DNA of 64,000 nucleotides from Flexilinea sp. (GCA_963638355.1 CAVHRT010000001.1:4495-68494); one strand, 5' to 3'; counted from the stretch's first letter, positions 10,927 through 64,000 are shown. The notes: a model not told the origin generated them from the letters alone. Numbers and translations: made by a program.

Positions 10927-11019
10927 GGAGAATTAAGAATTTAGAATTAAGAAGAGCTTTTCAGCCATATTCAATTTCAGTTCGCCACTTTATGAACTTT
11001 ATAAACTTGATGAACTTTT

Positions 11020-12729: not shown

Positions 12730-12733
12730 TCGC

Positions 12734-40005: not shown

Positions 40006-41505
40006 TTACTCTGTAAAGTGATGGTACGGCATCATCTTCTCCACCTCTTTTGCAATCTCTTTGGCGCGATTGGTCAGAAAATCGGCCATGGCCCAGCCGT
40101 AAATTTTCTTCTCTTTTGCCAATTTGTCGAGGTCGGCGTTGGTCATTTTTTTGTCGTGATTTACTAACTCTTTCTCGTCGGGGCGGCTCTGCGGATCGCC
40201 ACGATAGGTCACAATCTCGGTGCCGACTTCGCTCACGGTGTAGCGACCAGCCTTCTCTATCTGACCAGCCTTGGCATCTTGGCGCAAATCGATCACGCCA
40301 AAGGTGTAATCAATCTCCATCACCGATTCAATCGTGAATTTGTGCACTTTGCCATGATACATATTAAAGTCCTCTGTACCAGTGGTTTGCGATTTGCCTT
40401 TGTTGTAATCTTTCTCACTGATTGCCTTCTCGCTTACTACGCCATCTTTGGTAATGCGCTGCATATATTTCACCACCTCTCTGTCGACATTCGATTTGTT
40501 GTGAGCGTATTTGTAATGACCAAATTTTTCCGAATCGTAGGTGAAAATGAGCGCGCAGCGATGATTTTTCAGCGAATCGAGTGGCAGACCTTGTAACGTT
40601 TCGAAATCGTAATAATCGGGGAAGGCGTTGCGCAAGGTTTTCAGCGTTTTTGCGTCGAGATTGAGTGCGGTGTTGGTCACGCTATCGACTATGGCCACAC
40701 TCAGCACACCGCGTTTGTATGCCAATTTTTCTTTCTCTACCGAATTGCCAAAATCGCCTGCCAGAGCGTAGTAGCGAGCGGCATCGTATTGTGCTTGATA
40801 GCGCTCTTTACCGAAAAGTGCCTCGGCTTTGTCGAAAAATAGGTTTTGCAGCCGCACGCGGTCGGGAGTGATGCGCGCCACCATGGCCGAGTCGCCTTCG
40901 TGCCGTGCAATGATGGCGTTGAACAGACCGAGTGCCTCAATCTGGTCAGTCTCTTTGTTCGATTGTGCAAGGGTGTGAGCGTAGGGCAGTTCCACGCTGT
41001 CGCGATAGTTCACAATGTTGGCGGCGTAGATGGTGTCGTATTTGTTGGCTTTCTCCATGGTGGCGAGACCAATCTGTTTCTGCTCCATCTTTTTGCTCGA
41101 TTCGCACTGTTTGCGACCTTCATCGTAGTAGTATTTGGCGGCGTGTGCGCGAATGTCGGTCTGCAGCGAATCGTAGTTCACATGCTCCACGGCAGTCCAT
41201 TTGCCCTCTTGCACAAGGCGTTCCATGCGCGTTTGCAGGTCGGCCCAGAGGTGACATTCGTCGGCCATCTTCACATAGTTTTCTGGTTTTTTCTGCGCTG
41301 CGGCTTGCAGTGTTGCAATCTCTTTCAAAGCCTTTGCGTAGATGCCTTTCAGAGCTTTTTGCTCTTTTTTCAGCTGTTTCTTGTTGGTTTCGAAGCTCAC
41401 TTTTTCGGCTTGCGAAAGTGCGTCGTTCACCGCCTGTTGTGCTTCGATGGCTTGCATTGGCACCAACATGGCTGCCGCAACAAGCGCAATGATTGTTCTT
41501 TTCAT
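40006..41505 (-). CDS. secreted hypothetical protein
   Basis: 499 aa. Signal peptide MKRTIIALVAAAMLVPMQAIEAQ, a Lys/Glu/Ala-rich helical N-terminal third, then a mixed domain. No family was recognised. Confidence 0.6.
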   Translation of the reverse strand: MKRTIIALVAAAMLVPMQAIEAQQAVNDALSQAEKVSFETNKKQLKKEQKALKGIYAKALKEIATLQAAAQKKPENYVKMADECHLWADLQTRMERLVQEGKWTAVEHVNYDSLQTDIRAHAAKYYYDEGRKQCESSKKMEQKQIGLATMEKANKYDTIYAANIVNYRDSVELPYAHTLAQSNKETDQIEALGLFNAIIARHEGDSAMVARITPDRVRLQNLFFDKAEALFGKERYQAQYDAARYYALAGDFGNSVEKEKLAYKRGVLSVAIVDSVTNTALNLDAKTLKTLRNAFPDYYDFETLQGLPLDSLKNHRCALIFTYDSEKFGHYKYAHNKSNVDREVVKYMQRITKDGVVSEKAISEKDYNKGKSQTTGTEDFNMYHGKVHKFTIESVMEIDYTFGVIDLRQDAKAGQIEKAGRYTVSEVGTEIVTYRGDPQSRPDEKELVNHDKKMTNADLDKLAKEKKIYGWAMADFLTNRAKEIAKEVEKMMPYHHFTE

Positions 41506-47008: not shown

Positions 47009-47166
47009 CAATTTTTCCGAAAATCCACCATTTTTCGGGCAAAAGTTATCACCGCGCAAAGTTCATAAGTTGTTGATAACTTGGCACTTTTGTCGATAAA
47101 GTGTGCATTTTGTGCAATTTTCGCATTTTTTTTCGAGAAATACACACTATATATGGAAAAAAGTGG

Positions 47167-47174
47167 TAAATTTG
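47167..47174 (+). promoter_or_regulatory. candidate -7 promoter box (TAAATTTG) for the giant repeat-protein gene
   Basis: taaatttg lies 80 nt upstream of ATG 47254. It is the same octamer as at the cvpA and rnr candidates. Confidence 0.35.
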
Positions 47175-47253
47175 TCCGTTATATATGTTGATAACTTGCC
47201 GAGAGTGTAATTTTTCGGCTGAAAACAAAGAAAAACATCCAAAACCTGATATT

Positions 47254-47325
47254 ATGAAACGCTTCAGTTTGAGTTTTGCTGCTGTTGTTACCACGTTGCT
47301 GAGCATCGCTCCGCTCGCCAATGCG
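47254..47325 (+). other. Sec signal peptide of the giant protein (MKRFSLSFAAVVTTLLSIAPLANA | Q)
   Basis: It has a positively charged n-region (KR), a hydrophobic core, and an A-N-A cleavage motif. Confidence 0.75.
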
Positions 47326-50300
47326 CAGGTAACATTTAGTCCAACTGTAACTCCAAGCACCACGGTTTGTGCCAACGATGAGGTTACCCTTTCGCTTACT
47401 CCAAGCGATGGCGGTACCAACTATTCGTACAACTGGAAATGGACCGATGGTTTAGGAAATTCACAAACCAAAGTGGATCTGCAGTCGTTTACCGACAATC
47501 CGAGTGCGACAACTACTTACGAATGGTGGGCTCGTGATGAGTATGACGACCTTGCTGGGCATGGTACAGTCTCGGTGAATGTAAATTCCGCGCCTACGGT
47601 AACAGCTGACCCATCGACCTACTATGTGATTTCGGGCGGAGACGTTACGCTCAAGGTTTCGGGCAATGCATTGGCTAAGTCGTACGAGTGGACTGCCGCC
47701 GACGGAACAGTGCAGACATCAACTACCGACGAACTCAATCTTACTGGCGTTACTGAAGATACACAATATACCGTTGTAGCCATTGGAGCGAATGGCTGCA
47801 GAAGCAAATCTGTTACTGTAAAAGTTGTTACTTTCAGTGTAGAAGCAAACAATGAAACGGTTTGCTATGGCGATGCGGTTACACTTACGGCAGAATCAGC
47901 CGATGGTTCTAAATACTATTGGGACGATGGTTTTGTGGGCGAATCGAATACTGTTTATCCTAAGGGCGTTCCTACTACAACCTACACGGTAACCATCAAA
48001 GATGCAAACGATGCTTTGGTGGCAACGCAGTCGATAAAAGTAAATGTGATTGCTAAACCTGAGGTTACCCTTACGCCAGACGAAACCAATATTTGCGCTG
48101 GCAAGACTGTAACTATCACGGCCACAAACAATACGGGAAACAAAGGTAAGTATGTTTGGAACACAGGCGATACCGGCAATTCGTTAATAGATGATCCAAG
48201 CGTCACCACTACTTACTGGGTACAGTTTACCGATGGAACCACAGGTTGTACGAGTGGGAAGACATATTGCACCATCAACGTAAGTCAAGCGGGTTCGGCC
48301 TCGATAAATGGCGCGAACTCTACTTGCGTGAATACGCCAATAGAACTCACCGTTTCGGGCGGCACAGCACAGCGCTGGTTCGACGAGAGCGGCATCGACA
48401 TTACAATGCCATACACACCTACTTCGGTTGGCACAAAAACTATCTACTGCATAGTGAAAGATGCCAACGGCTGCGAGGTGAAAGCACAGAAAACCATTAC
48501 CGTTGCGCCCGCACTCACGCCAACCATCTATGGCGATTTTGATATCTGCGTAGGCGAATCGGCTCAACTCAAAGTTTCGACCGATGGCGCAACCTACTTG
48601 TGGAGCAATAATTCTACCGAGCAGAGCATTACTGTTAGCCCAACTTCGGACGCTTCGTATTGGGTCGATGTTACAAAAAATGGCTGCACAGCACGAGTAA
48701 CGCAAAAAGTTACAGTCAATGCCAAACCGACCATTAACATCACTGGTGGAACTACCATTTGCAAAGGTAGCACAGCGGTTGTTACAGCCGTAGCAACTGG
48801 CGGCAGCGGCACATACACCTATGCTTGGGACGACGAAAACAGCACTACCAATGCTACATTACGCGTAGCACCAACCTCTACTAAAACTTACAAAGTAACC
48901 GCTACCGATGCCGCTACTGGCTGCAGTAGCGAAAAATCGGTAACTATCGCTGTTGAAAGCGGTACGCCACCAACCATTCTCGGTCCAACCACGGTTTGCA
49001 AAGGCGTAGACTTCACACTTACTGCTTCCGATGGCGACTCGTTCGCTTGGGACGACGACGCTAGCACCACCACGGCAAGCATGACCGCCAATCTTACTAC
49101 CGATCGCACCTACACTCTGACGGTGAAGAAAGGCAGTTGCACCTACACTGTTCAGCACAAGGTAACTATTGAAGATGGTCCAGTGGGTGAAATCACTGGC
49201 GAAACCAGCATCTGCAAAGGAGGCAGCACCAAACTGACTGCACCTGCGGGTACATCGTACACTTGGAGCACGGGTTCTACCGAACAATCAATCACTGTTA
49301 CGACGGCTGGCACCTATTGGGTAGAAGTGAAGAAAGGCAACTGCACACTACACAAAGACATCACCATAACGGTAAACACGCCAACGGTAGCATCAATCAC
49401 TACTCCTGATGGATTGACACTCTGCGCCAACAACGAACTCGGACTTAAGTTGGTGGCTTCGGAAGGTAAAGCCTACAAATGGAGCCCAACGGGCGAGACT
49501 TCGCAAGAGATCACCGCCAAACCAACAGCAACTGGACTCTATTCGGTTACTGTAACTGACGAACATGGTTGCGAATCGACTGCATCGGTGCTGGTTACGG
49601 TTGTTGAAGATCCTGCCGAATTGGCTCTGAATGCATCGGCGACCACAGTCTGCAAAGGCGAAAATGTGATTCTCACCGTGCTGAATGCTCCTTCGGGCAG
49701 CACTATCTCGTCGAACGATGGCAGCGTAACGGGCAATGTCGTTACTCACACCGCTTCTATTAGCAAGACCGTAACCGTGAAGGTAAAATCTGGCACTTGC
49801 GAATATGTTTTGACAAAAGACATCACCGTGCTCGATGCTCCTGCGGGAACAATCACTGGCACGACGGCTATTTGCCAAGGCGGAAGCACCGTGTTGGCTG
49901 CACCTGTTGCTCCTGCTGGTCAGGTCTACACCTATTTATGGAATACGGGCGAAACCTCGTCGACCATCACCGTGTCGGCAGTGGGCGATTATTATGTAAC
50001 GGTGTCGAACGGCTCGTGCGAGACAAAATTGGCAGCCGTAACTGTTACTGAAAATATTCCTACTGCGCCAACTATCACGGCAAGTAAATCGACCATTTGC
50101 GCTGGCGAAACTATCACCCTTACGGCATCGAACTATGGTTCGATAACGGGTTGGAACGATGGCACACAAAATCTTGGTAACGCACAAGTTATATCGGTGT
50201 CGCCAACCACCACTACCAACTACGAACTCGTAGTAACCGATGCTAACGGCTGCGAGGCGAAAGCTTATCAGCAGATTGTGGTGAGCGCACCTATCGATGT

Positions 50301-53300
50301 AACCCTCACGGGCGACAATTCGGTTTGCGAAGGTGGCACTATCAGCGTAACCGTGAGTGGTGCGCCTAGCGGAAGCACCTATTCGTGGTCGACTGCTGGC
50401 ACGCTGAGCAATGGCGATGCCACTCTCACCTTCACGCCAGGTGTGAACGACGCTGCTGTGTCGGTAACTGTAACTCCACCAGCGGCAAAAGGTTGCGCTG
50501 TTACTAAGACATTCTCGTTCACGGTAACGCCTGCTCCTACGGGCAACATCACTGGTGTAACATCGGTTTGCAATGGCGGTAGCACCACGCTGTATGCTCC
50601 TGCTGGTCCTACGGGAACAACCTACAAATGGAACACTGGCGCAACCACACAATCGATCACCACACCTGCGTTGTTCAAAAATACCGTTTATTCGGTCGAC
50701 ATTGTTTATCCAACGGGATGCACGCTGTCGCCAACGCCTGTCACTGTGAAGATAAACGCTGCGCCAATTGGCACCATCACTGCTTCGAGCGATGTGGTTT
50801 GTGTAGGCGAACAGGTTGAACTCACCGTTACTTCGGCTACCGCTACGGGTTGGACTTGGAGCAATGGCACAACTGGCACAAACAAGGCTTATTACACGCC
50901 AACTACCAGCGGCAATGTTCAATATTATGTCGATATCACTGCCAACGGCTGCACCGAGCGTGTAAGCAAAAACATCACTGTGGTTGATAAACCTGTGGCT
51001 GCCATCGACAAATCGGCATCGACCTCATCGTTCTGCGAAGGCGAGCAGGTAACCATTGTCGCTACGGGCGGTACACGTTACGAATTAAACGGACAAAGTA
51101 GCACTACTGGTGTATTCTTGCTCAATCCAACGGCAACGACCACTTACACCATTTCGGTATTCAACGAAAATGATTGCGAAAGTCTGGTAACGCACACCGT
51201 AACCAAACTCACGCCAACTGCCGAACCGAGCATTGTGGCGAACGGATCGCTCGAACTTTGCGTAGGCGATAGTCGCACACTTTCGATCAATAATGGCACA
51301 ATAATTAGTTGGGCTGACGGCACATCTACACCAAATTATATATATACGGCAACTTCGGCCGACTTGGGAACGAAAACAATCACTGCCGAAGTGAAAGATA
51401 TGAACGGCTGCACCAAGTCGTTAAGCATAGATTTTGTCGTTACCGAAATTCCTTCGGTGGCCATCACTACAACTAACGAAACCATCTGCAAAGGTGAAAA
51501 GGTAACTCTGACCGCTACACCGGGCTTGGCTTCGTATTCGTGGGAATCGGGCGAAAAGACTCAGGAGATAATTGTCTCGCCAAGCATTACCACAACTTAT
51601 GTTGTAACTGGAACTAACGCTGGCGGTTGCTCGTCGACGGCTAAAATCACCATCAATGTGGCGACGCCTGATGCAGTATCGATTTCTGGTCCTGCCACGG
51701 CTTGCCCAGGCGAGAGCGTAACTCTGAGTGCTGTGGGCGGCAAAGCATGGAACTGGTCGCACGGACTTGGCACAGGCAATACGGCAACATTCAACGCTGC
51801 CACTACCACTACCTACACTTGCGAAATTACCGATTCGAAAGGTTGCGTAACCAAAGTGTCGCACACGCTCACCGTGAAAGAGACTCCAACGCCAACCGTT
51901 TCGGGTAATCTGAAAGTGTGTCAAGGTTTGAACACCACACTGAGCGCAAGCACCGCCGATGCCTACGAATGGAAGAAGGGCGCAACCGTGCTCAGCACTG
52001 CCTCGACATTGACATTGACCAATGTTCAAAGTTCGGAAGATTACACATTGACCGTAACCGTGAACGGCTGCCAAGCAAGCACTTCGTTCCGCGTAACGGC
52101 ATGCGAAAATCCAACCGATGCAGCAATCGTTGGTAAAAATCAAGTCTGCGAAGGCGAATCGGTAACACTCACCGCTGTGGGCAATGGCACTTACTCGTGG
52201 AGTACTGGTGCAACAGGCAGTGAAATCACTGTAACGCCAACTGCTGCCAACCACATCTACCAACTGACTGTAACCGACATGAACGGTTGCACGCAGACGG
52301 TACAAAAGAACATCACCGTATCGCCAACGCCATCGGTAACCATCGATGGTCCGACCGAGGTTTGCGCTGGTGGTTCGGTTACCCTCACTGCTAGTGGTTC
52401 TGGCACGTTCTTGTGGGACGATGGCACGACCACTACTGCAACTCTCAACGTAACGCCTAGCGTAACGCGCGCTTACAAAGTAACCCTTACCGATGCTTCG
52501 GGCTGCACCGTAACTGCATCGCACACTGTAAATGTGAAGACATTGACCGCTCCGAAAATTTCGGCTGCGAAGACCGATGTCTGCAAAGGCGATAAAGTAA
52601 CCCTGACTGCCACGGGCGAAACGGGTTGCACCTTCACTTGGCCCGATCTTGGAAGGACGGGTGCTAGCGTGGAGGTTTATCCAAGCACAACTACCACCTA
52701 CAAAGTTACGGCTACGAACACCACTGGTTGCACTGCCGATGGCTACATCACTATCAATGTACACGAGCAACCTACGGTAACAGTGCTTGTCGATAAGTCG
52801 GCAATTTGCGCTGGCGAATCGGCTACCATCACCGTAACGGGCGGTACGGAATATACTTGCAATGGCGAGACGAACACTTCTGGTATTTTCAATGTTTCGC
52901 CAACCACGACTACACCATATAATATAGTGGTGAAAAATTCGGCTGGTTGCACCACAACTACATCGCAAACTATCACCGTAAATGAATTGCCGACTATCAG
53001 CATCTCGGGCGTCGATAAAGCATGCGCTGGCGAACTCATTACTCTCACGGCTACGGGCGGCACCGAATATTCGTGGAGCAACGGCATGACATCGCAAACT
53101 GCCACTTACACAATTTCTGGCACTGGCACCATGTCGGTTTGGGTGAAAGGTAAGAACGCTAGCGGCTGCTGGAGCGGTCAAGTGGCGCACAACATCACCA
53201 TCAATACAAAACCAACCATTGCTGTTTCGGGAACGATGGATATTTGCGTTGGCAAATCGACTACACTCACTGCTTCGGGTGCAAGCACATACGTTTGGAC

Positions 53301-56300
53301 TTGGAATGGCGGCTCGGCTATGGGCAACACATTGAACGTATCGCCAAATGCTACCACCGTTTATAAAGTAGTTGGTACTGATGCCAATGGTTGCGTAGGC
53401 GAAACTTCGGTTACTGTGAACGTTTATCCTGAACCTACGGTTTCCATTACAGGCGCGACCGAGGTGTGCGAGGGTGGCGAGATTACTCTTACTGCCAACG
53501 GCACAGGCACATTCTTGTGGAACACTGGCGAATCGTCGCAAAGCATAAAAGTAACATCGGCTGGAACTTATTCGGTTACCCTCACGGGCGAAGGCGGTTG
53601 CACTTCGAAAGCCGAAATCATTGTGAAACAGAGAACCATCACCGCTAAGATAAACGATGTGATAGATGGTGTATCGACTATTTGCGAAGGTAGCGACATC
53701 ACTCTTACCGCTTCGGGTGGCAATGCATATAAGTGGGACAATGGCCTCGGAACGAACGCTACTGTTACTGTAAATCCGACTACATCGACCACCTATTGGG
53801 TTGAAGTTACTGACGCTTCGGGCTGCAGCAAACGCGTAAGTCACACTGTGAAGGTAACGCCCCAACCAACGCTCACCGTTGTGGGTAACACCACCATTTG
53901 CTATGGCGAGACCGCTAGCATCACTGTTTCGGGTGCGAAGACTTATGTTTGGAGCGATGGCATTGGCACTGGCGCAAGCATCAATGTAACGCCAGCATCG
54001 ACATCGACCTACACCGTAACTGCTACCGACGAAAATGGTTGCGTTACAACGCAAGATATTAAGATTGAAGTTGTTCCAACGCCTGTGGCTTCTATCAAGG
54101 CTAGCAAAACAACTGTTTGCGAAGGCGAGTCGGTTACACTTACTGCCGAGGGCGGCGACAACTATGTTTGGGGCGATGGTAGCACGGGCGCATCCATTAC
54201 CGTTACACCAACTGCGCCAAGCACTACCTATTCGGTTACGGCCTACAAGAATGGTTGCGCAAGTGCTGAAGTTTCGCAAGTCATCACTGTGAACGCGCTG
54301 CCAACGGTAACCATTAAACCATCGGCAACCACCGTTTGCAAAGGCGAACAGGTTACCCTTACTGCTTCGGGCGCTACATCGTACGAATGGAGCACGGGCG
54401 AAAAGACGCAAGCCATCACCGTTACGGTGAACAGCGATGCCACCTATTCGGTAATTGGTACACAAAATGGCTGCCAAGGCACTGCCTCGCAGAGCATTAA
54501 AGTGGCTACACCGCCTACCATCAACATCTCGAGCAACACTGGAAAACTCTATATCTGCAATGGCGAAAGCATTACGCTGACCGCCTCGGGAGCAAACACC
54601 TACACATGGTCTGGCGGATTGGGCAACACTGCTTCTATCACCGTTACGCCAACTGCTACCACTACATACGAGGTCGAAGGTGTTTCGGCAAATGGTTGCA
54701 AGGCTAAGGTGACGGTTGAAGTAATCGTTTACGATAAACCAAATCCGACGATCTCTGGTCAAACCGAAATTTGCGAAGGTAGTTACACCACTCTGACTGC
54801 CAACGATGCTAATGCCGTGGCTTGGGAGTGGAACACTGGAGCCAAAACTAAGAGCATCAATGCTTATCAGGCTGGCACTTACACAGTGACGGTAACTGGC
54901 AAGGGTGGTTGCACCTCTACTGCTACGGTCATTGTTACCTACCTGACGCCTGTCAATGGTTCGATTAGTGGGCCAGAAACCGTATGCAAAGGCGAAACTG
55001 TAACTCTTACGGCAAGTGGCGGTAAGACTTACAAATGGGATGAAAATGCTGCCGAAAGTGAGAAACTTGTTCTTTCGAATATCCAAGTTAGTGGCACGCA
55101 CTGGGTTACCATTACTGGTGCCAATGGTTGCACGCAGCGTTTGGGTCATAGCATCATTGTGAACGAGCCACCAACGCTCTCCATCACTGGTAATCAAACC
55201 TTCTGCGAAGGTGGAAGCACCACTCTTACTGCAGTTGGTACGGGCGATGTGCTGTGGAGCACAGGAAGCACCAATCGTTCGATCACCGTATCTGCCGAAG
55301 GCAAGTACGATGCTACATTGACCGATGCCAACGGCTGCTCGACAACTCAGTCAGTGAACGTAACGCGCAATCCGCTGCCAGTAGCCATCATCTCTGGTCC
55401 TACAAAGGCTTGCGAAGGTGAACCTGTTACACTTACTGTTTCGGGTGCTGAAAGTTACACTTGGAGCACGGGCGCTACGGGTTCGAGCATTACGGTTCAA
55501 CCTACTACAACCACAACCTACACCGTTACACCGAAGACTGGACTCTGCACTGGCGATCCAGCGAAGTTCACCGTAACTGTAAATAAGAAACCTGTAATTA
55601 CTTTCAGTGGCGATTTGGAGATTTGCGCCGGCACTAAAGCCGTGATCACTGCCGATGGTGCCGACGAATATGTTTGGGGCGATGGCTCTACGGGCGCAAC
55701 CTACACCACCGCAGTACTCGAATCGAACACCACATTCACCGTAACTGGTACAATTACTGAAACTGGTTGCTCGGCACAAAAACAGATTACCGTCGTTGTC
55801 AATCCAAAACCGGAAATCTCTATTTCGGGTACAACATCGGTTTGCGCTGGCGAATCGACCAAACTGACGGCTTCGCCTAGTGGTGCAACTTACGCATGGA
55901 GCAATGGTTCTACTGGTCGCACCGCAACCTTCAGCAATCTGATTAGCGACGAAGACTATTGGGTTGATGTAACCTTGGACAATGGCTGCACCGATCGCTA
56001 TTATGGCACTATCAAAGTTTATGATATGCCTGCTGCCGAAATTATTACAAACACTGGTACGAACACTGTCTGTCGTGGCGAAAGCATCACCCTTACTGCT
56101 TCGGGCGGAACTACCTATTTGTGGACGCACGATGGCACGCGTAGTGCATCTGTTACCGTTACGCCAACGACCGATACAAAATATACTGTGAAGGTGATTG
56201 GCGAGGGCAACTGCTCGTCGACGGCTAGCATCAACATTCAAGTGCTCGATGTGCCAGAGGCTGCTATTGTGGCTGATAAGACCACGGTCTGCGAAGGCGA

Positions 56301-59300
56301 CGATGTTACACTGTCGGCCAACGATGGTGTGAAATGGCAATGGTACAAAGGCAATACTGCGATTGCTGGCGAGACTGGTCAGCATTACACGATAAGCAAC
56401 GCTTCGTATGGCACAACAACCTATAAAGTTGTGGTCGAAAATGCCGCAGGTTGCTCTACCACGGCTTCGTATGCGCTGGCTGTTACGCGCAAACCTGATG
56501 CCACCATTTCGGGCGTTACCAACATTTGCAGCGGCACAAGCACAACACTTACTGCACCGCTCTCCGATAGCTATCTGTGGAGTACGGGCGAGACTACGCG
56601 CAGCATCAATGTAACGCCGGCTGCTGGTAAAACTGACTATACGGTAACCGTTACTGTGGGCGATTGCTCGGCTACAGGCACAGTAACTGTAACTGTTAAC
56701 CCGCTACCAACGCCAACGCTTCAGGCAGACGAAAATCCTGTTTGCGTGGGCAATTCTACCACACTGACTGCTGGCGCGGGCTTCAAATACTATAAATGGA
56801 GCACTGGCCAAGAGGGTCCGAATTTGCAATCGATTGGTGTTTCACCAACTGAAAATACCATCTACACTGTAACTGTAACCGATGCCAATGGTTGCACTGG
56901 TGTGGCGCAAGTTACCGTAAATGTAACGCAAGTGCCTGCACCAACCATCACCGTGCTTTCGGGTTCTGAAACCGTTTGCGCTGGCGAAGAGGTTATTCTG
57001 CAATCGAGCGCTGCCAAGGGATATCAGTGGAGCAGCAATGTGGAAGTATCGCAACAAAATGGACAAACCGTAGTGGTTTATCCAACGCAAACGAGTGTCT
57101 ACACTGTAACAACCACAAACAAATCAGGTTGCCAAAGTTCGAAAGATATCACCATCAATGTAACTAAGTTGCCAACGCCTAAGATTACTGGCGCCGACAA
57201 TATGTGCAAAGGCGATGAGACTGGTGTTGAACTTACCGCTAGCAGCGATGTTGCAGGCGCAACCTTCGTTTGGAGCACGGGCGACAATACTGCCAACATC
57301 GTTGTTAAACCTACCAAGACCACCACTTATAAAGTCTGGGCATACAACGGCACTTGCAAGAACCCAACGCCTGCCGAATTCACGCTGAAAGTGAACGACG
57401 CTCCTGCCGCTGCCATCACGGGTCGTTCGGCTATTTGCCTTGGCGAAACTGTTGAACTGGAAGCTACGGGCGGTGTTACCTACTTGTGGCAGAACATCGA
57501 AGGCTCGGCTAAAGCATTGAGCAAGATCACAGTATCGCCAACGCAGACCACAAAATATATCTGCACGGTAACCGACGATCATGGTTGCACGAAAGATGTT
57601 TCGCTCGAAGTAGTTGTTAATCCGCTGCCGAAACCAAGCATTACTGGTAAGAATAAGATTTGCCGTGGCGGAAGTGTAACTTTGGCTGCTACGGGTGGCA
57701 ATAGTTACTTGTGGAGCACGAACGAAACCACCAAAGAGATCACCGTAACTCCTGCCTACACCACCACTTACACCGTGGAGGCTACCAATGCCAATGGTTG
57801 CACAAGCGAGGCTACATTCACTGTGGAGGTTGTTCAAGAACCTAAAGTGCATATCGAGGGACCGTCCGTGAGCTGCTCTGGCACGCCAGTTACACTTACC
57901 GTAACGCCCGAAGACAGCCGCACCTACACCTGCATTTGGAAACACAACAACTCTACCAAACTGGCCGAGGCTGTGAATCCAACTACGACTACCACCTACG
58001 AGGTAGAGGTGTTCGATGGCGAATGCTCTAAGACCTTGACGCACACGGTTACGGTAAATAAATTGGAAGATCCGAAGATTGACGGTCCTGCACAAATCTG
58101 CTTGGGCGAAGCGACCACGCTGACTGTGTCGAATAATCCGAACAACTTCGTATCGTATCAGTGGAGCACGGGCGAAACCACTCAAAGCATTGAGGTGAAA
58201 CCTGCTGTAGTGGGTATGAGCACCTACACCGTTATTTGTACCGATGCTAACGAATGCACCAGCGAAGCTACCATCGACATTGTGGTTAACGCACTGCCCG
58301 ATGTTACTGTTACTGCCTCGACCGACGTGCTTTGCGAAGGCGACAACAGCGTTACGCTGACCGCTTCGGGCGCTGGCATCAGTGGCAAATATAATTGGTA
58401 CGAAGATGAACTCGCCACTGTGCTGTTGGCTGGTGGCGAAGGCACTGCGACCTACACATTCAACGACCTGACCTACACGAAGAAGATCTATGTGGTTGCC
58501 ATCTCGAAACTTGGTTGCAAGAGCGCACCGAAAGAGTACGAATTGGTTGTAACGCCTAAACCGACCCCAACCATCACTTCGTCGGTTCCTGCCAATGTAA
58601 TCTGCGCTGGCGGCACGGTCGAGTTGAGCGTTTCTGATCCCGATCCTGATGTAACCTTCGTTTGGAGCGATGGCACCGAGGGCGCGCACATGACCGCTAC
58701 GGCTGCTGGCGAATATCGCGTTACGGCTACCAATGTGGCTGGCTGCACGCAAGATGCAACCATCACCCTCAACGAAGAGCCATTGCCCGCTGCGAAGATA
58801 ACACCTTCGATTATAACAGGCACAGGTGCTGGCGTAGCAGAGGAAAATATTGCAAGAATTTGCGCTGGCACACGCTTGAAACTGACTGCCTCGCCGCTAT
58901 CAACGCAGCAGCTCACCTATACCTACAAATGGAACACTGGTTCTATTGCAAGCGAAATAACTGTGAACCCAACTGCTAGCACCACCTATTCGGTAGTGAT
59001 AACCAGTGCTTCGGGTTGCGAACAGACCGCTACAATAGAAGTGAAGGTGAACGAATTCGTAACCATCGAAGGTAAAACCGAAGTCTGCGCAGGAATGCCG
59101 TACGTATTGAATGCGATAGGCAATAATTTGAGCTATTACGAATGGACGCGCAATGGTGAGAAGTTGCCTCAATTTGATGGCGTGTCGAGCATCAAATGTG
59201 TCGATTCTGTGCCTGATGGACAGATGTCGGCCGAGGTAGTTTATGGCGTGAAGTGTATTTACGACAACAACTGCGAAACCGATACTACCATCACCGTTAA

Positions 59301-62300
59301 GGTTTATGCCAAACCGAGCGATCTCACCATCAATGGCATTGGTGGCGCCGATGCAATGGATTCGGTTTGTGTAGAATCGGCAAAACAACTCTCGGTAATT
59401 CCAACGGGCGGTTCGTCGCTCACGGGCGCAACTTACAACTGGACTGGTTCGGGCATTACCGATCCAACGGCGGCTACGCAAACCATCACGCCAACGGCTG
59501 TTGGTCAAGAACCTTACTCTTGCCAAATAACCATGCCTGGCGGTTGCGATACCACTGTCAACATCATCTTGAAAGCCGTGGCATTGCCCGAATTGGCAGT
59601 TTGCCCAGATACTACTATCTGCTTTGGAACAGAGGCACAACTCTATCTGACCGCTAAGAATAACTGTCCTGATGGCACAACCATTACATGGACTAGCGAT
59701 AATGGCGGTGGCGGCGCTAGTGGCGATGTTGTTCGCGTGGCACCAACCACAACGACCACCTACACCGTTACGGCTAAAACGCCTGCACCACTTGGTTGCA
59801 GCACCACTCAAACGGTTACCGTAACTGTCATTCCGCAACAGCAGCCCACGGTTACTCCTTCGCCTGCACTCATCTGCCTCGATGCAGCGGGCATTAGCGA
59901 GGACGATCTGAACTTGACTACTGAAGATACCGACTCGGAAGGTCGCGCCTTTAAGGCTTACAAGTGGTATGCCGAGGACGATCCGACCACCATCATTGGT
60001 ACATCGAATGCCATCACAGTGCCGAAAGCCAACATCACAGCCACACGCACCTATGTGGTTGAGGTTACCACGCAAGAAGGTTGCACCGCTCTTGGTAGCA
60101 TCGAAGTGCCTGTAAGCGAGAAACCATCGGTATCGATCAAGGGCGAAACGCAAGTTTGCGAAGGCAAGTCGCTTGTGCTGCAAGCCGAAAGTCCAATAAA
60201 TGTAACGCGTTACGAATGGACTACCAACGACGATCCGAATACGGTATTCGCCACCACGCAGAGTGTTACCGTTTGGCCAACTACCACGGTTAATACCTAC
60301 TACTTGACCGTTTACAACGACAAGGGTTGCCGCTTCGAGGTGAACCCAGGTCATAATGTAACAATTCTGAAAGCACCGAAACCGCAGATTGCTGCCGATC
60401 ACAACCCAATTTGTGAAGGCGATGATGTAATTCTTACCGCATCTGACCTGAACAGCGGCACTTGCACGGTTGTTTGGGACGATAACTCTACCAACCCAGT
60501 GCGTAAGATTGTTGGTTTGACATCGACTACCACCTACAATGTAACCCTCACCAACGAGAATGGTTGCGTTGAGCAGGTTGAATACATCGTTAATGTGAAC
60601 CCGCTGCCGAAACTGAAGATTACGGGTAACACGCAAGTGTGCGTTGGCGACAGCGTGCTGTTGAGCGTTGAAGATGCCAATGGCGTCGACAATAAATACA
60701 GCTGGACTGGCGGCGCATGGCGCGAGGCTACCGATCAAGGTTCGGTCAACAACAGCAAAGTTTGGGTTTATCCGACCAATATTGTCGACAGCACCGAATA
60801 CTGCGTAACATCTGTCGATGTGAACTCGTGCAATAGCAAACAGGTTTGTCATAAGATTTTGGCATTCGCTAAACCGATAGCCATGATCAACGGCAAACAG
60901 ATGGCTACCGACACCATTTGCGTGGGTCAGAGCCTGATACTCGAAGCCACGGGCGGTAGCAAGTTCAAATGGAGCACCAATGCCGAATCGCAGCAGATAA
61001 CCACGCCTATCTACAACTCGGTAAATACCTACATATTCTGGGTTGATGTGTATAACGAGGCTAACTGCGTTCAACGCGACTCCATCTGGATTAAAGTCGC
61101 TCCGAAACCGAGTGCTTACATCGAATCAGTTTCGCCTGCTACACAAGTGTGCGAAGGTACAACCGTGACCATGCGCGCTTCGGACGCTCCTACGGGCAGC
61201 CGCTACACCTATGCATGGACCAACAATACGGGCGAAACCATCGAAAATGCTAATCAGCAAGAAATCTCGGTAACGCCAACCGTTACTACGGCTTACAAAC
61301 TTGTGATTACCGATGTCGAAACCGAGTGTGTGAAAGAGATTTTGCAGACCATCTACATCGATCCGAAGGCTAAAGTGAACTTCACTGCAACGCCCGACAC
61401 CATTTGCGAAGGCGATGTGTTCAGTCTTGAGATCGAAGGCGATGTGTCGAATCAGACTATTGCTTGGGAGAAGTTGCGCAACGGCTCGGCTCAAGATGCA
61501 TCGTCGTGGGCTGACAAGACGACCATTCTCGACTCGCCAACGGCTAGCGAATATATCTACCGCGCTACGCTCACCAACAAGGTTACTGGTTGCCTGACAG
61601 TGCTCGAACGCCGACTCGTGGTTGTTCGTGTGCCGAAAGCCTCTATTCAGATTCCGAATAAGACAACCACTACCATTTGCCAAGGCGATCCAATAGAATT
61701 GCAGGCTTGGAACGACGAAGGTAAGTACTCGCTTGCGCAGATGATTCAGTTTGTTTGGAAAGTTGGTGACGACACCATCGCACCACTCAACCAACAGAAG
61801 ATAACTGTTTATCCGCGCACTACTACCACCTACACGCTGATAATGCAGAGCCTTGAAAATGGTTGCACTTCGTCGTACGATACCACTATCAATGTGCTCG
61901 AGATTCCGAAAGTGAATGTCGTGGAGCCTGATAATCAGGTTATTTGCGAGGACGAAGAGATCACCTTTACGCTCGAAGGTCTTTTGCCAGAGTATGGCGT
62001 AACGTGGAACAAATACGATCGTGGTAATCTCATCGCATCGTGGACTAAGAATGGCGTAACAACTGTTACCGATAAACCAACCAAGAGTGAATACGAGTAC
62101 AGAGTGAATGTCTCAAACCCACTCGGTTGCGATACCACCATTGTGCGCCACTTGCGCGTGAACGCTGTGCCACGACCAGGCATTAAGTTCCCAGGTACTA
62201 AGCAAGACACCATCTGCGAGGGCGAAGAGGCTTGGTTGCAGGCTACAAATGCCGAAAGCAGCTGGAGTACGATGTACTACACCTACGGCTGGTTGAACCA

Positions 62301-64000
62301 TGGCGATACGCTGACGCACGACGACTACACGCTGAAGTTGAAACCGACTAAGACTGACAATTATACCTTCTATATCATCGATAAGACTTCGGGTTGCCGC
62401 CGCACCATCGACACCACCATTGTAGTGCTGCCGATACCGCGTGTCGAGCTGAGTGAACCAGGCACATCGCTGTGCGAAGGCGAAATGTACACCCTCGAAC
62501 TCAGTAGCGAACTGCCGCTGACCGATGCTACCATCACTTGGACTAAGACTGATAGTTACAGCACAACGCTCGATACGAAGAACGACATCGTAACCTACAG
62601 CGATATGCCAACTGCTGGTAACTACACCTACACTGTGGTGATTGCCAACAAGAACAAGTGCGACACTACCATTGTTCGTAAACTGAGCGTCAGCACCGTG
62701 CCGCAACCTTACATCATGATTGGCGATGGCACTGGCGACACCATTTGCGAAGGCGATCAAGTGAAGCTGATTGGTCAGAACCTGAAGAGCAACTACAACT
62801 TTACCGATTATCCTGTAGCATGGATTGTTGGTAACGATACGCTCCAAAAAGATCAGACGCAACTGATTGACAAACCACAAAAGACCACAACCTACAAATT
62901 TGTGGTAACCAATGCGGCTACGGGTTGCTTCCTCGCTGTCGACACCACCATATATGTGAAGGCTCGCCCAGCAACCAAGCTGAAAGTGAAGTTGCCAGGT
63001 GGCTCTACCGATAGCGCCATTTGCAAAGGCGAATCTATCAGCATGCAGATAGTCGATACTGTGGCTAACAACACCGACGGATTGCATGTTCAGTGGAAAC
63101 GCAATGGCGTGATTGTGAACGAATGGAAGGATAAGTTCGACATTGTGAACTACACGCCCGACGATGACGAAAGTTATGTGATAACCGTCGACAATGGTCG
63201 CTGCCCGATAGTGCTGAACTACGACCTGACAGTGAACTATCTGCCCGATCCTACGGTTGAGCTGAGAGCTGGCTCGCGTGAGGTTTGCGCTGGTACGCGT
63301 GTCGACATTGGCGGCGCACAAAACCAAGATCTCGATTCGCGCTATGTTTACGAATGGACAACAGTGCCTGTGGGCGAAGTCATCGCAAATCCGCACGACA
63401 AGGACATTGCGGTTTATCCGTACACCACAACCACCTATGTCTACACCGTAACCGATACGCAGACGGGTTGCTCGCGCTCCGACAGCATTGCTATCGCCGT
63501 AAATCAACGGCCAAATGTAACGCTCGAGGTCATCTATCCCGAAGGCGCTGACGGCAACCTCATCTGCCAGACCGAGCCTGTAACACTGCGTCTGCGTGGC
63601 GAAACCGATAGTCTGACTACTCTGTGGTTTGTGAATACGATTCCACAAGCCGAATGGGCCGACAAACTCTCAATTACTGATGCACCAAGCAACGAGCGAA
63701 ACGACTACACTGTGAAAGTTTCTAACGGTAAATGCGAACTGCAAATAGACACAACTATTTTGGTAAGCAAAGTGCCTAATCCGAAGATTTACAGCGTAGG
63801 CGACATCACCACCATTTGCGAAGGCACCAAAGTGGAACTGAAAGCGCAAGAGCCGCAAATTTCGACGATGGTAAATGGTAAGAACATCAACGACTATCGC
63901 TGGACAAGTAGCAATCCGAAGGAAGTTCTCGAAAATCCGACGAACCAAAACATTCTCGTTTACCCGAAGACTACTACGACTTACACTTACACCGCTACCA
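47254..64000 (+). CDS. giant secreted Ig-like-repeat cell-surface protein (SprB/CHU-type adhesin-like), 3' end beyond the window; >=5,582 codons
   Basis: It was hand-translated in frame +1 (positions = 1 mod 3), with codons checked at more than 40 line starts between 47461 and 63961, and no stop was found. The motif CxGxxVxLTAxG...YxW..G.T...I.V.P..TT.Y.V.V.D.NGC persists to the last codon. It is missing from the supplied track, which lists only ORFs closed inside the window. An alternative in-frame ATG lies at 47185. Confidence 0.88.
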   Translation, partial: MKRFSLSFAAVVTTLLSIAPLANAQVTFSPTVTPSTTVCANDEVTLSLTPSDGGTNYSYNWKWTDGLGNSQTKVDLQSFTDNPSATTTYEWWARDEYDDLAGHGTVSVNVNSAPTVTADPSTYYVISGGDVTLKVSGNALAKSYEWTAADGTVQTSTTDELNLTGVTEDTQYTVVAIGANGCRSKSVTVKVVTFSVEANNETVCYGDAVTLTAESADGSKYYWDDGFVGESNTVYPKGVPTTTYTVTIKDANDALVATQSIKVNVIAKPEVTLTPDETNICAGKTVTITATNNTGNKGKYVWNTGDTGNSLIDDPSVTTTYWVQFTDGTTGCTSGKTYCTINVSQAGSASINGANSTCVNTPIELTVSGGTAQRWFDESGIDITMPYTPTSVGTKTIYCIVKDANGCEVKAQKTITVAPALTPTIYGDFDICVGESAQLKVSTDGATYLWSNNSTEQSITVSPTSDASYWVDVTKNGCTARVTQKVTVNAKPTINITGGTTICKGSTAVVTAVATGGSGTYTYAWDDENSTTNATLRVAPTSTKTYKVTATDAATGCSSEKSVTIAVESGTPPTILGPTTVCKGVDFTLTASDGDSFAWDDDASTTTASMTANLTTDRTYTLTVKKGSCTYTVQHKVTIEDGPVGEITGETSICKGGSTKLTAPAGTSYTWSTGSTEQSITVTTAGTYWVEVKKGNCTLHKDITITVNTPTVASITTPDGLTLCANNELGLKLVASEGKAYKWSPTGETSQEITAKPTATGLYSVTVTDEHGCESTASVLVTVVEDPAELALNASATTVCKGENVILTVLNAPSGSTISSNDGSVTGNVVTHTASISKTVTVKVKSGTCEYVLTKDITVLDAPAGTITGTTAICQGGSTVLAAPVAPAGQVYTYLWNTGETSSTITVSAVGDYYVTVSNGSCETKLAAVTVTENIPTAPTITASKSTICAGETITLTASNYGSITGWNDGTQNLGNAQVISVSPTTTTNYELVVTDANGCEAKAYQQIVVSAPIDVTLTGDNSVCEGGTISVTVSGAPSGSTYSWSTAGTLSNGDATLTFTPGVNDAAVSVTVTPPAAKGCAVTKTFSFTVTPAPTGNITGVTSVCNGGSTTLYAPAGPTGTTYKWNTGATTQSITTPALFKNTVYSVDIVYPTGCTLSPTPVTVKINAAPIGTITASSDVVCVGEQVELTVTSATATGWTWSNGTTGTNKAYYTPTTSGNVQYYVDITANGCTERVSKNITVVDKPVAAIDKSASTSSFCEGEQVTIVATGGTRYELNGQSSTTGVFLLNPTATTTYTISVFNENDCESLVTHTVTKLTPTAEPSIVANGSLELCVGDSRTLSINNGTIISWADGTSTPNYIYTATSADLGTKTITAEVKDMNGCTKSLSIDFVVTEIPSVAITTTNETICKGEKVTLTATPGLASYSWESGEKTQEIIVSPSITTTYVVTGTNAGGCSSTAKITINVATPDAVSISGPATACPGESVTLSAVGGKAWNWSHGLGTGNTATFNAATTTTYTCEITDSKGCVTKVSHTLTVKETPTPTVSGNLKVCQGLNTTLSASTADAYEWKKGATVLSTASTLTLTNVQSSEDYTLTVTVNGCQASTSFRVTACENPTDAAIVGKNQVCEGESVTLTAVGNGTYSWSTGATGSEITVTPTAANHIYQLTVTDMNGCTQTVQKNITVSPTPSVTIDGPTEVCAGGSVTLTASGSGTFLWDDGTTTTATLNVTPSVTRAYKVTLTDASGCTVTASHTVNVKTLTAPKISAAKTDVCKGDKVTLTATGETGCTFTWPDLGRTGASVEVYPSTTTTYKVTATNTTGCTADGYITINVHEQPTVTVLVDKSAICAGESATITVTGGTEYTCNGETNTSGIFNVSPTTTTPYNIVVKNSAGCTTTTSQTITVNELPTISISGVDKACAGELITLTATGGTEYSWSNGMTSQTATYTISGTGTMSVWVKGKNASGCWSGQVAHNITINTKPTIAVSGTMDICVGKSTTLTASGASTYVWTWNGGSAMGNTLNVSPNATTVYKVVGTDANGCVGETSVTVNVYPEPTVSITGATEVCEGGEITLTANGTGTFLWNTGESSQSIKVTSAGTYSVTLTGEGGCTSKAEIIVKQRTITAKINDVIDGVSTICEGSDITLTASGGNAYKWDNGLGTNATVTVNPTTSTTYWVEVTDASGCSKRVSHTVKVTPQPTLTVVGNTTICYGETASITVSGAKTYVWSDGIGTGASINVTPASTSTYTVTATDENGCVTTQDIKIEVVPTPVASIKASKTTVCEGESVTLTAEGGDNYVWGDGSTGASITVTPTAPSTTYSVTAYKNGCASAEVSQVITVNALPTVTIKPSATTVCKGEQVTLTASGATSYEWSTGEKTQAITVTVNSDATYSVIGTQNGCQGTASQSIKVATPPTINISSNTGKLYICNGESITLTASGANTYTWSGGLGNTASITVTPTATTTYEVEGVSANGCKAKVTVEVIVYDKPNPTISGQTEICEGSYTTLTANDANAVAWEWNTGAKTKSINAYQAGTYTVTVTGKGGCTSTATVIVTYLTPVNGSISGPETVCKGETVTLTASGGKTYKWDENAAESEKLVLSNIQVSGTHWVTITGANGCTQRLGHSIIVNEPPTLSITGNQTFCEGGSTTLTAVGTGDVLWSTGSTNRSITVSAEGKYDATLTDANGCSTTQSVNVTRNPLPVAIISGPTKACEGEPVTLTVSGAESYTWSTGATGSSITVQPTTTTTYTVTPKTGLCTGDPAKFTVTVNKKPVITFSGDLEICAGTKAVITADGADEYVWGDGSTGATYTTAVLESNTTFTVTGTITETGCSAQKQITVVVNPKPEISISGTTSVCAGESTKLTASPSGATYAWSNGSTGRTATFSNLISDEDYWVDVTLDNGCTDRYYGTIKVYDMPAAEIITNTGTNTVCRGESITLTASGGTTYLWTHDGTRSASVTVTPTTDTKYTVKVIGEGNCSSTASINIQVLDVPEAAIVADKTTVCEGDDVTLSANDGVKWQWYKGNTAIAGETGQHYTISNASYGTTTYKVVVENAAGCSTTASYALAVTRKPDATISGVTNICSGTSTTLTAPLSDSYLWSTGETTRSINVTPAAGKTDYTVTVTVGDCSATGTVTVTVNPLPTPTLQADENPVCVGNSTTLTAGAGFKYYKWSTGQEGPNLQSIGVSPTENTIYTVTVTDANGCTGVAQVTVNVTQVPAPTITVLSGSETVCAGEEVILQSSAAKGYQWSSNVEVSQQNGQTVVVYPTQTSVYTVTTTNKSGCQSSKDITINVTKLPTPKITGADNMCKGDETGVELTASSDVAGATFVWSTGDNTANIVVKPTKTTTYKVWAYNGTCKNPTPAEFTLKVNDAPAAAITGRSAICLGETVELEATGGVTYLWQNIEGSAKALSKITVSPTQTTKYICTVTDDHGCTKDVSLEVVVNPLPKPSITGKNKICRGGSVTLAATGGNSYLWSTNETTKEITVTPAYTTTYTVEATNANGCTSEATFTVEVVQEPKVHIEGPSVSCSGTPVTLTVTPEDSRTYTCIWKHNNSTKLAEAVNPTTTTTYEVEVFDGECSKTLTHTVTVNKLEDPKIDGPAQICLGEATTLTVSNNPNNFVSYQWSTGETTQSIEVKPAVVGMSTYTVICTDANECTSEATIDIVVNALPDVTVTASTDVLCEGDNSVTLTASGAGISGKYNWYEDELATVLLAGGEGTATYTFNDLTYTKKIYVVAISKLGCKSAPKEYELVVTPKPTPTITSSVPANVICAGGTVELSVSDPDPDVTFVWSDGTEGAHMTATAAGEYRVTATNVAGCTQDATITLNEEPLPAAKITPSIITGTGAGVAEENIARICAGTRLKLTASPLSTQQLTYTYKWNTGSIASEITVNPTASTTYSVVITSASGCEQTATIEVKVNEFVTIEGKTEVCAGMPYVLNAIGNNLSYYEWTRNGEKLPQFDGVSSIKCVDSVPDGQMSAEVVYGVKCIYDNNCETDTTITVKVYAKPSDLTINGIGGADAMDSVCVESAKQLSVIPTGGSSLTGATYNWTGSGITDPTAATQTITPTAVGQEPYSCQITMPGGCDTTVNIILKAVALPELAVCPDTTICFGTEAQLYLTAKNNCPDGTTITWTSDNGGGGASGDVVRVAPTTTTTYTVTAKTPAPLGCSTTQTVTVTVIPQQQPTVTPSPALICLDAAGISEDDLNLTTEDTDSEGRAFKAYKWYAEDDPTTIIGTSNAITVPKANITATRTYVVEVTTQEGCTALGSIEVPVSEKPSVSIKGETQVCEGKSLVLQAESPINVTRYEWTTNDDPNTVFATTQSVTVWPTTTVNTYYLTVYNDKGCRFEVNPGHNVTILKAPKPQIAADHNPICEGDDVILTASDLNSGTCTVVWDDNSTNPVRKIVGLTSTTTYNVTLTNENGCVEQVEYIVNVNPLPKLKITGNTQVCVGDSVLLSVEDANGVDNKYSWTGGAWREATDQGSVNNSKVWVYPTNIVDSTEYCVTSVDVNSCNSKQVCHKILAFAKPIAMINGKQMATDTICVGQSLILEATGGSKFKWSTNAESQQITTPIYNSVNTYIFWVDVYNEANCVQRDSIWIKVAPKPSAYIESVSPATQVCEGTTVTMRASDAPTGSRYTYAWTNNTGETIENANQQEISVTPTVTTAYKLVITDVETECVKEILQTIYIDPKAKVNFTATPDTICEGDVFSLEIEGDVSNQTIAWEKLRNGSAQDASSWADKTTILDSPTASEYIYRATLTNKVTGCLTVLERRLVVVRVPKASIQIPNKTTTTICQGDPIELQAWNDEGKYSLAQMIQFVWKVGDDTIAPLNQQKITVYPRTTTTYTLIMQSLENGCTSSYDTTINVLEIPKVNVVEPDNQVICEDEEITFTLEGLLPEYGVTWNKYDRGNLIASWTKNGVTTVTDKPTKSEYEYRVNVSNPLGCDTTIVRHLRVNAVPRPGIKFPGTKQDTICEGEEAWLQATNAESSWSTMYYTYGWLNHGDTLTHDDYTLKLKPTKTDNYTFYIIDKTSGCRRTIDTTIVVLPIPRVELSEPGTSLCEGEMYTLELSSELPLTDATITWTKTDSYSTTLDTKNDIVTYSDMPTAGNYTYTVVIANKNKCDTTIVRKLSVSTVPQPYIMIGDGTGDTICEGDQVKLIGQNLKSNYNFTDYPVAWIVGNDTLQKDQTQLIDKPQKTTTYKFVVTNAATGCFLAVDTTIYVKARPATKLKVKLPGGSTDSAICKGESISMQIVDTVANNTDGLHVQWKRNGVIVNEWKDKFDIVNYTPDDDESYVITVDNGRCPIVLNYDLTVNYLPDPTVELRAGSREVCAGTRVDIGGAQNQDLDSRYVYEWTTVPVGEVIANPHDKDIAVYPYTTTTYVYTVTDTQTGCSRSDSIAIAVNQRPNVTLEVIYPEGADGNLICQTEPVTLRLRGETDSLTTLWFVNTIPQAEWADKLSITDAPSNERNDYTVKVSNGKCELQIDTTILVSKVPNPKIYSVGDITTICEGTKVELKAQEPQISTMVNGKNINDYRWTSSNPKEVLENPTNQNILVYPKTTTTYTYTAT
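47329..64000 (+). repeat. tandem array of ~71 divergent protein-coding modules (~219-240 nt proximal, ~270 nt distal)
   Basis: I counted 71 module starts of the form [IV]CxG(E/D/G)xxxL. An example module is 52105-52323 (ENPTDAAIVGKNQVCEGESVTLTAVGNGTYSWSTGATGSEITVTPTAANHIYQLTVTDMNGCTQTVQKNITVS). The copies are diverged at the nucleotide level. Confidence 0.85.

Follow-up and report, generated by a model that had tools for sequence, protein, structure and literature searches.

A giant Ig_7-repeat T9SS type A cargo protein of an uncultured Paludibacteraceae bacterium

The giant gene and its coding strand

The DNA analysed here, a stretch of 64,000 nucleotides that we call the window, belongs to an uncultured Paludibacteraceae (Bacteroidales) bacterium, whose habitat appears to be of the wastewater or digester type. 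Positions 47254 to 63999 (+ strand, frame +1) form one reading frame of 5,582 codons, in which machine translation found zero stops up to the window end. This agrees with an earlier, sequence-only reading of the same DNA, which had proposed a single uninterrupted frame of at least 5,582 codons from the ATG at 47254. The closest in-frame stop upstream of this ATG lies at 47167, and at the regional base composition a stop-free run of 5,582 codons would be expected by chance with a probability of about 1e-116. The ORF was missing from the + strand ORF track because the ORF lister leaves out any ORF that extends past the edge of its source sequence. The gene had also been described as unannotated, which is not the case, as public assemblies already carry a gene call for it. 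The protein encoded by the neighbouring uvrB gene (minus strand, ending at 47059, assigned by Pfam) is present in identical form on the NCBI MAG contig CAVJQG010000001.1 (GCA_963651745.1, 79 kb) and on one ENA contig, and on both contigs the gene adjoining uvrB is called at 7,243-7,244 residues and has a PF19081 match.

The public call of 7,243 aa starts at a second in-frame ATG, at 47185, 23 codons upstream of 47254; a start at this position would add 23 residues ahead of the signal peptide. Two orthologous proteins, P0065 and P0066, have the N-termini MKRFNLSF and MNRFNLKL, both at the Met homologous to 47254. Comparison with these N-termini supports ATG 47254 as the true start, and since the orthologues begin there, the protein counted from 47254 would be about 7,220 aa long. 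The start codon and the predicted Sec signal peptide MKRFSLSFAAVVTTLLSIAPLANA occupy positions 47254-47325 (+), with cleavage predicted after ANA. Read by eye, this N-terminus shows the successive basic, hydrophobic and A-x-A parts expected of a Sec signal peptide, with Q as the following residue, and the layout is kept in the orthologues, so that the signal peptide noticed earlier can be retained. In Bacteroidota, cleavage of the signal peptide commonly leaves an N-terminal Gln (the 'Q-rule'). The Gln is not kept in the orthologues, and the rule is therefore not invoked here. Between uvrB and the giant gene lies a divergent intergenic region (47060-47253, + strand), which presumably contains the promoter of the giant gene; a scan of the region upstream of the gene for sigma-70 promoters and terminators yielded two weak sigma-70 matches, not exceeding the shuffled control.

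A genome scan recovered two loci labelled Paludibacteraceae (L003 and L004), the ORFs of which are colinear with the window ORF, with 98% and 92% amino acid identity, respectively, and 1-3 gaps over 3,400 residues. Both ORFs run 1,640 residues past the window end, which bears out the expectation that the gene extends beyond the window and that its true size is larger. Judged by these orthologues, from which the 3' part is taken, the 16.7-kb region amounts to the initial 77% of a single gene with about 7,220 codons. The predicted mature protein has a mass of about 755 kDa and a pI of 4.6; it is probably the largest protein of the host organism and a major feature of its surface.

The opposite strand of the same region carries nine long ORFs (48184-63648, minus strand; for example 51421-55197, 1,258 aa), which are non-coding shadows of the sense gene. 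All nine lie in one antisense frame, whose codon position 1 coincides with the sense wobble position. Antisense stops correspond to TTA, CTA or TCA in the sense frame, and as these make up just 22 of the 5,582 sense codons, their rarity explains why long minus-strand ORFs exist at all. Substitutions relative to L003 (95.6% nucleotide identity) fall at codon position 3 in 396 of 482 cases (53/33/396 at positions 1/2/3), and relative to L004 (90.2% nucleotide identity) in 720 of 1,056 cases (193/143/720). Nei-Gojobori dN/dS ratios for the two orthologous loci are 0.056 and 0.131 in the sense frame, compared with 3.1 and 1.6 in the antisense frame of the long minus-strand ORFs. As far as can be read from sequence comparison, the giant + strand gene is thus shown to be under purifying selection, and the minus-strand ORFs are artefacts, given dN/dS of 0.06-0.13 in the sense frame against more than 1.5 in the antisense frame. 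The earlier reading had itself raised the case that the minus-strand ORFs might be conserved instead; both the dN/dS values and the positions of the substitutions speak against them.

The same data bear on a broader objection, namely that the frame is non-functional: an artefact of repeat assembly, a decaying pseudogene, or the shadow of true genes on the minus strand. Repetitive genes are often misassembled in metagenomes, and long minus-strand ORFs are indeed present. However, the modules that make up the array (see below) are old and diverged, with a median pairwise identity of 29% and a maximum of 55%, which does not confuse assemblers, and colinear genes were recovered from at least five independent assemblies. 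Collapse or misassembly is therefore not a concern, and the repeat count does not have to be confirmed by long reads, as had been recommended. Taken together with the strong selection on the sense frame and with the codon usage that accounts for the minus-strand ORFs, this refutes the objection as far as sequence can show, and we regard a non-functional frame as exceedingly improbable.

Ig-like modules and their conserved cysteines

An HMM built from 41 central modules placed 71 modules across residues 28-5582, with almost no linkers between them, which is exactly the number of tandem modules that had been estimated (about 71). Along the ORF, the spacing of cysteines alternates between about 47 and about 25 residues. 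When the window part was joined to the tail of L003 (referred to as the composite), 86 credible modules were counted; about 170 non-repetitive residues separate the last of them from the sorting domain. Four zones can be distinguished within the window. Modules 1-5 (47335-48510, + strand, aa 28-419) are divergent Ig-like modules of the putative distal tip, scoring 18-44 bits with the HMM. Modules 6-51 (48511-58782, + strand, aa 420-3843), delimited by HMM, alignment and PF19081, represent the canonical array with a period of 72-75 aa and the consensus xPxxxIxGxxxxCxGxxxTLTAxGGxxYxWxxGxxTxxxxTVxPxxxxTYxVTxTxxxGCxxxxxxxxxVxx; every one of these 46 central modules has both cysteines in the alignment, and conservation of the C-x-G glycine and of the tryptophan reaches at least 90%. 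Modules 52-60 (58783-61113, + strand, aa 3844-4620) form an irregular zone, with modules of 71-97 aa, extra cysteines and gaps of 12-23 aa. With module 61, modules of type A and type B begin to alternate, giving a super-repeat of two modules (about 175 aa), which was recognised by comparing identity at lag 2 (32%) with that at lag 1 (19%). Its modules 61-71 fill the remainder of the window (61114-63999, + strand, aa 4621-5582), and in the composite it continues through the L003 tail to about module 78 (about aa 6270), with variable modules thereafter. Most of the A/B block (aa about 4700-5780) has no counterpart in the orthologue P0066 (6,159 aa); the block is therefore a lineage-specific expansion by duplication of di-modules.

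The Bacteroidota O-glycosylation sequon D(S/T)(AILVMT) is not enriched overall in the window ORF (25 matches, compared with 30.8 +/- 5.0 in shuffled sequences). All 25 matches lie after residue 3500 (window positions 57754-63999) and none in the first 3,500 residues, and a DTT motif recurs directly after the second cysteine in the tail modules. This skew may be a mere reflection of the module consensus.

As for family assignment, PF19081 (Ig_7) matched the two halves of the ORF with 325.3 and 269.1 bits (cutoff 27.3), 17 and 9 stretches passing individually, and it matched the orthologue tail with 138 bits. These scores substantiate the likeness to the 'Ig-like domain, CHU_C-associated' family that had been noted by eye, while a second suggested likeness, to the SprB repeat, was not recovered: there is no PF13573 match at E <= 0.01 in either the window ORF or the orthologue tail. 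Besides PF19081, nothing in Pfam exceeded its threshold on the window ORF. NCBIfam gave no match there, because the sole part of the protein that NCBIfam can recognise, the C-terminal sorting domain, falls outside the window. A literature search on PF19081 or Ig_7 returned unrelated papers only.

Structure prediction agrees with this assignment. An AlphaFold model of three modules (aa 2132-2348), computed with an alignment of 44 in-protein tri-module rows, reached a pLDDT of 96.9 and has about seven strands per module, and a model of aa 25-425 (pLDDT 93.5) consists of five Ig-like modules, in which DSSP found all beta strands and no helices. The Ig-like fold that had been anticipated was thus obtained for three as well as for five modules, as a beta-sandwich that matches structures of Ig domains. 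In Foldseek searches of the PDB, the best seven matches to the tri-module model were all fragments of GhpA of Aureispira sp. CCB-QB1 (PDB 9flp, 9fls, 9flu-9fly and 9g8b), with TM scores of 0.66-0.72 over three modules, compared with less than 0.45 for other multi-Ig structures; the best eight matches to the model of aa 25-425 were all GhpA stem fragments. Searched with the module profile, the GhpA sequence itself was matched in 38 stretches with E = 4.3e-222. GhpA (grappling hook protein A) is a T9SS cargo of 5,898 aa with an N-terminal, adhesin-like hook module at residues 26-1402 and a stem of 52 Ig-like repeats (bioRxiv 10.1101/2024.01.29.577165).

The presence of two conserved cysteines per module had been recognised earlier and holds true; the accompanying proposal of a disulfide within each module does not, as three lines of evidence point to a bond between neighbours instead. 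First, the bond Cys2988-Cys3140 joins neighbouring domains in GhpA (bioRxiv 10.1101/2024.01.29.577165). On our profile, GhpA residue 2988 is position 13 (the first conserved cysteine, Cys1) of the domain starting at 2977, and residue 3140 is within one residue of position 60 (the second, Cys2) of the next domain (3082-3151). Second, in the window protein Cys1 occurs alone in modules 1 and 3 and Cys2 alone in module 2, and module 4 contains both. Pairing of neighbours leaves zero unpaired cysteines in these N-terminal modules, compared with three under the intramodule rule, and the same pattern of lone cysteines is found in the orthologues P0065 (71% identity) and P0066 (42%). Third, among 5,612 modules of 151 proteins, the presence of Cys1 in module i is associated with that of Cys2 in module i+1 (phi 0.38, Fisher p = 2e-56), compared with a phi of 0.04 for Cys1 and Cys2 of the same module. 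A neighbour control, Cys2 of module i with Cys1 of module i+1, was also positive (phi 0.20), because degenerate modules cluster together. By analogy with GhpA and from these patterns, a disulfide between Cys1 of module i and Cys2 of module i+1 is most likely. Anaerobic Bacteroidales are regarded as inefficient in forming disulfides in their envelope, which counts against such staples between modules. If the inter-module rule is true, about 85 staples would stiffen the chain, and the rule could be tested across all 172,693 Ig_7 clusters (see below), whose conserved cysteines would link neighbouring modules rather than close their own.

Orthologues, export and neighbouring genes

More distant orthologues were also found to be colinear with the window protein. 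P0065 (7,201 aa) is 71% identical over its whole extent, the alignment of 7,200 aa containing only 51 gap positions, and its 90% cluster comprises eight members, each of precisely 7,201 aa. P0066 shares 42% identity and the uvrB synteny, and is devoid of the A/B block and of two small blocks. Owing to this colinearity, every module has its own orthologue. In these alignments, the length of the array is constant within a lineage, and changes between lineages involve whole blocks. Compared with P0065, the N-terminal residues 25-250 (window positions 47326-48000) are the least conserved (53%, versus 71% overall), followed by the A/B block (56-58%). The low conservation of the N-terminus would fit an exposed distal tip.

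A profile search of 1.84 billion cluster representatives yielded 172,693 proteins with the module, and 40,651 of these matched at E <= 1e-30. Among the best 150 of the 172,693, at least eight clusters exceed 7,000 aa and contain 61-92 modules; type B C-termini occur in some of these best 150 clusters, and SprB-like repeats in some. Proteins built as giant arrays of the module have thus arisen repeatedly in public data. Since arrays of similar size recur and the structure of a homologous stem module, that of GhpA, has been solved, the suggestion that the window encodes a novel kind of fibre or adhesin could not be upheld. Going by these homologues, the giant protein is rather a large, well-conserved Ig_7-repeat T9SS type A cargo, of a class that is already known and abundant.

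The assignment as type A cargo comes from the C-termini of the orthologues at 92-98% identity, from which the sorting domain and the stop of the giant gene were taken. There, the type A sorting domain TIGR04183 was matched with 32.3 bits in L003 and 29.6 bits in L004 (cutoff 23), and Pfam Por_Secre_tail (PF18962) stayed just under its threshold on the orthologue tail (25.7 versus 27). Export by the T9SS, which had been suspected, is thereby corroborated. The likeness to giant gliding or adhesion proteins, drawn at the same time, stands in one respect, as the protein is a T9SS cargo, and falls in another, as the CHU_C type B signal of gliding adhesins (PF13585) had no match at the orthologue C-termini, where only type A was matched. 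In Porphyromonas, the sorting domain of type A cargo is removed by PorU and the product is joined to anionic LPS, which results in C-terminal anchoring.

A T9SS component is encoded in the window itself. The ORF at 12734-15094 (minus strand), described before as PorZ-like, is a bona fide PorZ, which belongs to the attachment complex of the T9SS; the ORF matched the equivalog model NF052228 (T9SS_PorZ) with 717 bits (cutoff 260) and Pfam PorZ_N_b_propeller with 151 bits. As porZ is located 32 kb from the giant gene, among housekeeping genes and not in the same operon, it provides evidence of a genomic T9SS and not of an operon link. The type A sorting model gives the C-terminus of PorZ itself 22.9 bits (cutoff 23). 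Downstream of porZ, within 10075-15094 and likewise on the minus strand, come a phosphoethanolamine-transferase-like gene (11020-12729; EptA/CptA model matches, all below cutoffs) and a GSCFA-family gene (10075-10926). This neighbourhood could represent a link between LPS modification and the protein that delivers A-LPS.

Two other ORFs of the window deserve mention. A 499-aa ORF at 40006-41505 (minus strand), located between recG and a DAGK-like gene and called in public assemblies, has no Pfam or NCBIfam match. An 816-aa ORF at 3042-5492 (minus strand) has a weak GH5 cellulase match (26 bits) over its first 230 residues only, the roughly 580 residues beyond them having no assignment.

Downstream of the giant gene, outside the window, a companion ORF of 287-311 aa was present 16-40 nt further on the same strand in every lineage examined (L003:16127-17059, L004:16150-17055, L005:24508-25371, L006-L009:4001-4882 and L010:3616-4482). 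From its sequence, the companion protein has a signal peptide, an amphipathic, beta-rich pattern and an invariant GWRFxDxHxCNCI motif at the C-terminus; it had no match in Pfam, NCBIfam or, by profile, in the PDB. Its family is small (11 clusters) and far better conserved than the giant protein, with 77% identity where the giants share 42%. In two more distant lineages, whose giants are orthologous with 38% identity to the very end, the companion gene is followed after 18-29 nt by a gene whose secreted product has a thioredoxin fold and a WCGPC or WCPPC active site (L007:4911-5519 and L010:4500-5105), so that the genes of the giant protein, the companion and the thioredoxin look like an operon there. 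A thioredoxin gene does not follow the companion in L004 or L005, and none is present in the loci most closely related to the window. An operon-linked thioredoxin would fit with a need for disulfide chemistry during assembly, and the companion and the thioredoxin offer leads to how a cysteine-rich rod of 750 kDa is made in an anaerobe. Farther downstream in L004, some 4 kb from the giant gene, a 279-aa ORF (L004:20234-21073, minus strand) has a weak match to the PorV/PorQ family (NF033709, 39.8 bits versus a cutoff of 90).

Proposed function and relation to known systems

We consider it probable that the gene of about 7,220 codons encodes a T9SS-exported, C-terminally anchored rod of about 86 Ig_7 modules, which serves contact, adhesion or spacing. 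According to this model, the Sec signal peptide would bring the giant protein to the periplasm and the C-terminal type A sorting domain would route it through the T9SS. As expected for type A cargo, PorU would then cleave the sorting domain away and attach the protein, by its newly formed C-terminus, to anionic LPS that PorZ supplies. The protein would then be held at the outer membrane by its C-terminal end, its N-terminus forming the distal tip, and inter-module disulfides such as those of the GhpA stem would turn it into a stiff rod, the length of which can be estimated at about 300 nm (86 modules x 3.5-4 nm). Most likely, the protein would make long-reach contact with cells, particles or polymers or adhere to them, or else keep them at a fixed distance. 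The tip consists of faster-evolving Ig-like modules only, and no ligand-binding head or hook was found in it, so that the term 'adhesin' is derived from the architecture alone.

The closeness of the modules to those of GhpA raises the question of whether the protein forms an appendage of the same type, in which several copies would pack laterally into a rigid, hollow tube, seated on the outer membrane and used to catch other cells. The stem of GhpA is built in this manner from seven copies, is rigid and hollow, and reaches a length of 240 nm (bioRxiv 10.1101/2024.01.29.577165). The profile match to GhpA (E = 4e-222), the TM scores over three modules, which set GhpA apart from other multi-Ig structures, the agreement of the cysteine pattern with the inter-domain disulfide of GhpA, and the strictly conserved length of the orthologues would all be in keeping with such an assembly. 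Nevertheless, there is no N-terminal hook module in the window protein, its C-terminal 280 aa show no similarity to GhpA (and the region preceding the sorting domain gave chance-level matches only against PDB sequences), and no T6SS genes were detected among the window ORFs scanned against family libraries. In Aureispira, GhpA ends in a C-terminal sorting domain and its gene is followed by the PorP-like ghpB and the PorE-like ghpC (bioRxiv 10.1101/2024.01.29.577165). Downstream of the giant gene in L004, no Pfam or NCBIfam match to PorP- or PorE-like (ghpB/C) or SprF-family genes was obtained, and their place is taken by the conserved companion gene. Furthermore, Ig_7 is common to 172,693 clusters, so that similarity of the stem is by itself weak evidence for the same assembly. 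For these reasons, a GhpA-type appendage appears unlikely to us.

One could also imagine that the protein is no lone filament but the subunit of a headless, GhpA-like multimeric tube of about 300 nm in an anaerobic, non-gliding member of Bacteroidales, anchored as type A cargo without a PorP/PorE base and dependent on the strictly conserved companion protein for its assembly, which in some lineages would be assisted by the operon-encoded, periplasmic thioredoxin. The latter would then make or shuffle the roughly 85 inter-module disulfides. We put this forward as a speculation that is more doubtful still; if it were true, it would describe a new type of T9SS-built surface appendage with a dedicated redox helper.

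A further possibility is that the protein is, like SprB of Flavobacterium johnsoniae, an adhesin moved along the cell surface by gliding machinery. Both are giant, repetitive T9SS cargo, the window protein being built of Ig-like repeats, and SprB forms a filament on the cell surface. SprB has SprB repeats (PF13573) and a type B CHU_C C-terminal domain and depends on the adjacent sprF (PorP/SprF family) gene; none of these was found here, the sorting domain being of type A, and gliding is not a known trait of Paludibacteraceae or other Bacteroidales, which counts against this reading as well. In size the two proteins are similar, SprB having 6,497 aa (bioRxiv 10.1101/2024.01.29.577165). On balance, we hold a function in gliding to be very unlikely, and the anchored rod remains our preferred interpretation.

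Comparison with known systems places this rod within the range of established architectures. Proteins named 'T9SS type A sorting domain-containing protein' at NCBI that carry Ig_7 share the module family, the sorting domain and the phylum with the window protein. This name and Ig_7 Pfam sets are borne by the matches to the C-terminal 882 aa and the N-terminal 419 aa of the window ORF among 5.8 billion proteins, which were all short, below about 1.75 times the query length. Such generic proteins are mostly 400-1,500 aa long, with few modules and often with an enzyme or other functional domain, whereas the window protein, at about 7,220 aa, is a nearly pure array of modules. As to the working principle, a long chain of Ig-like domains, parallels are seen in SiiE of Salmonella and MpIBP of Marinomonas, giant Ig-repeat adhesins whose long chain holds the cell at a distance from a surface. 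These differ from the window protein in having BIg repeats, stiffening by Ca2+ instead of cysteines, type I secretion and distal ligand-binding domains; the MpIBP structures 4p99 and 5irb were weak Foldseek matches to the tri-module model.

GhpA itself shares with the window protein the status of a giant Bacteroidota T9SS cargo, the Sec signal peptide, a C-terminal T9SS sorting domain, and an uninterrupted array of homologous Ig-like modules with two conserved cysteines each and a similar inter-module geometry. It differs by its N-terminal hook of about 1,400 aa, in place of which the window protein has Ig-like modules from residue 28 onwards, and by its 52 modules of about 83 aa, compared with about 86 modules of 72-90 aa here. 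The super-repeat comprises two modules in the window protein, whereas the GhpA domain table has a three-module period, and the hosts are an anaerobic member of Bacteroidales and a gliding marine predator, respectively. Judged from these sequences, the window protein shares its stem module with GhpA but is not an orthologue of GhpA. No new category is opened by this finding, and standard pipelines would annotate the giant protein correctly; what it adds is that the stem architecture of GhpA is now extended to Bacteroidales and to type A cargo.
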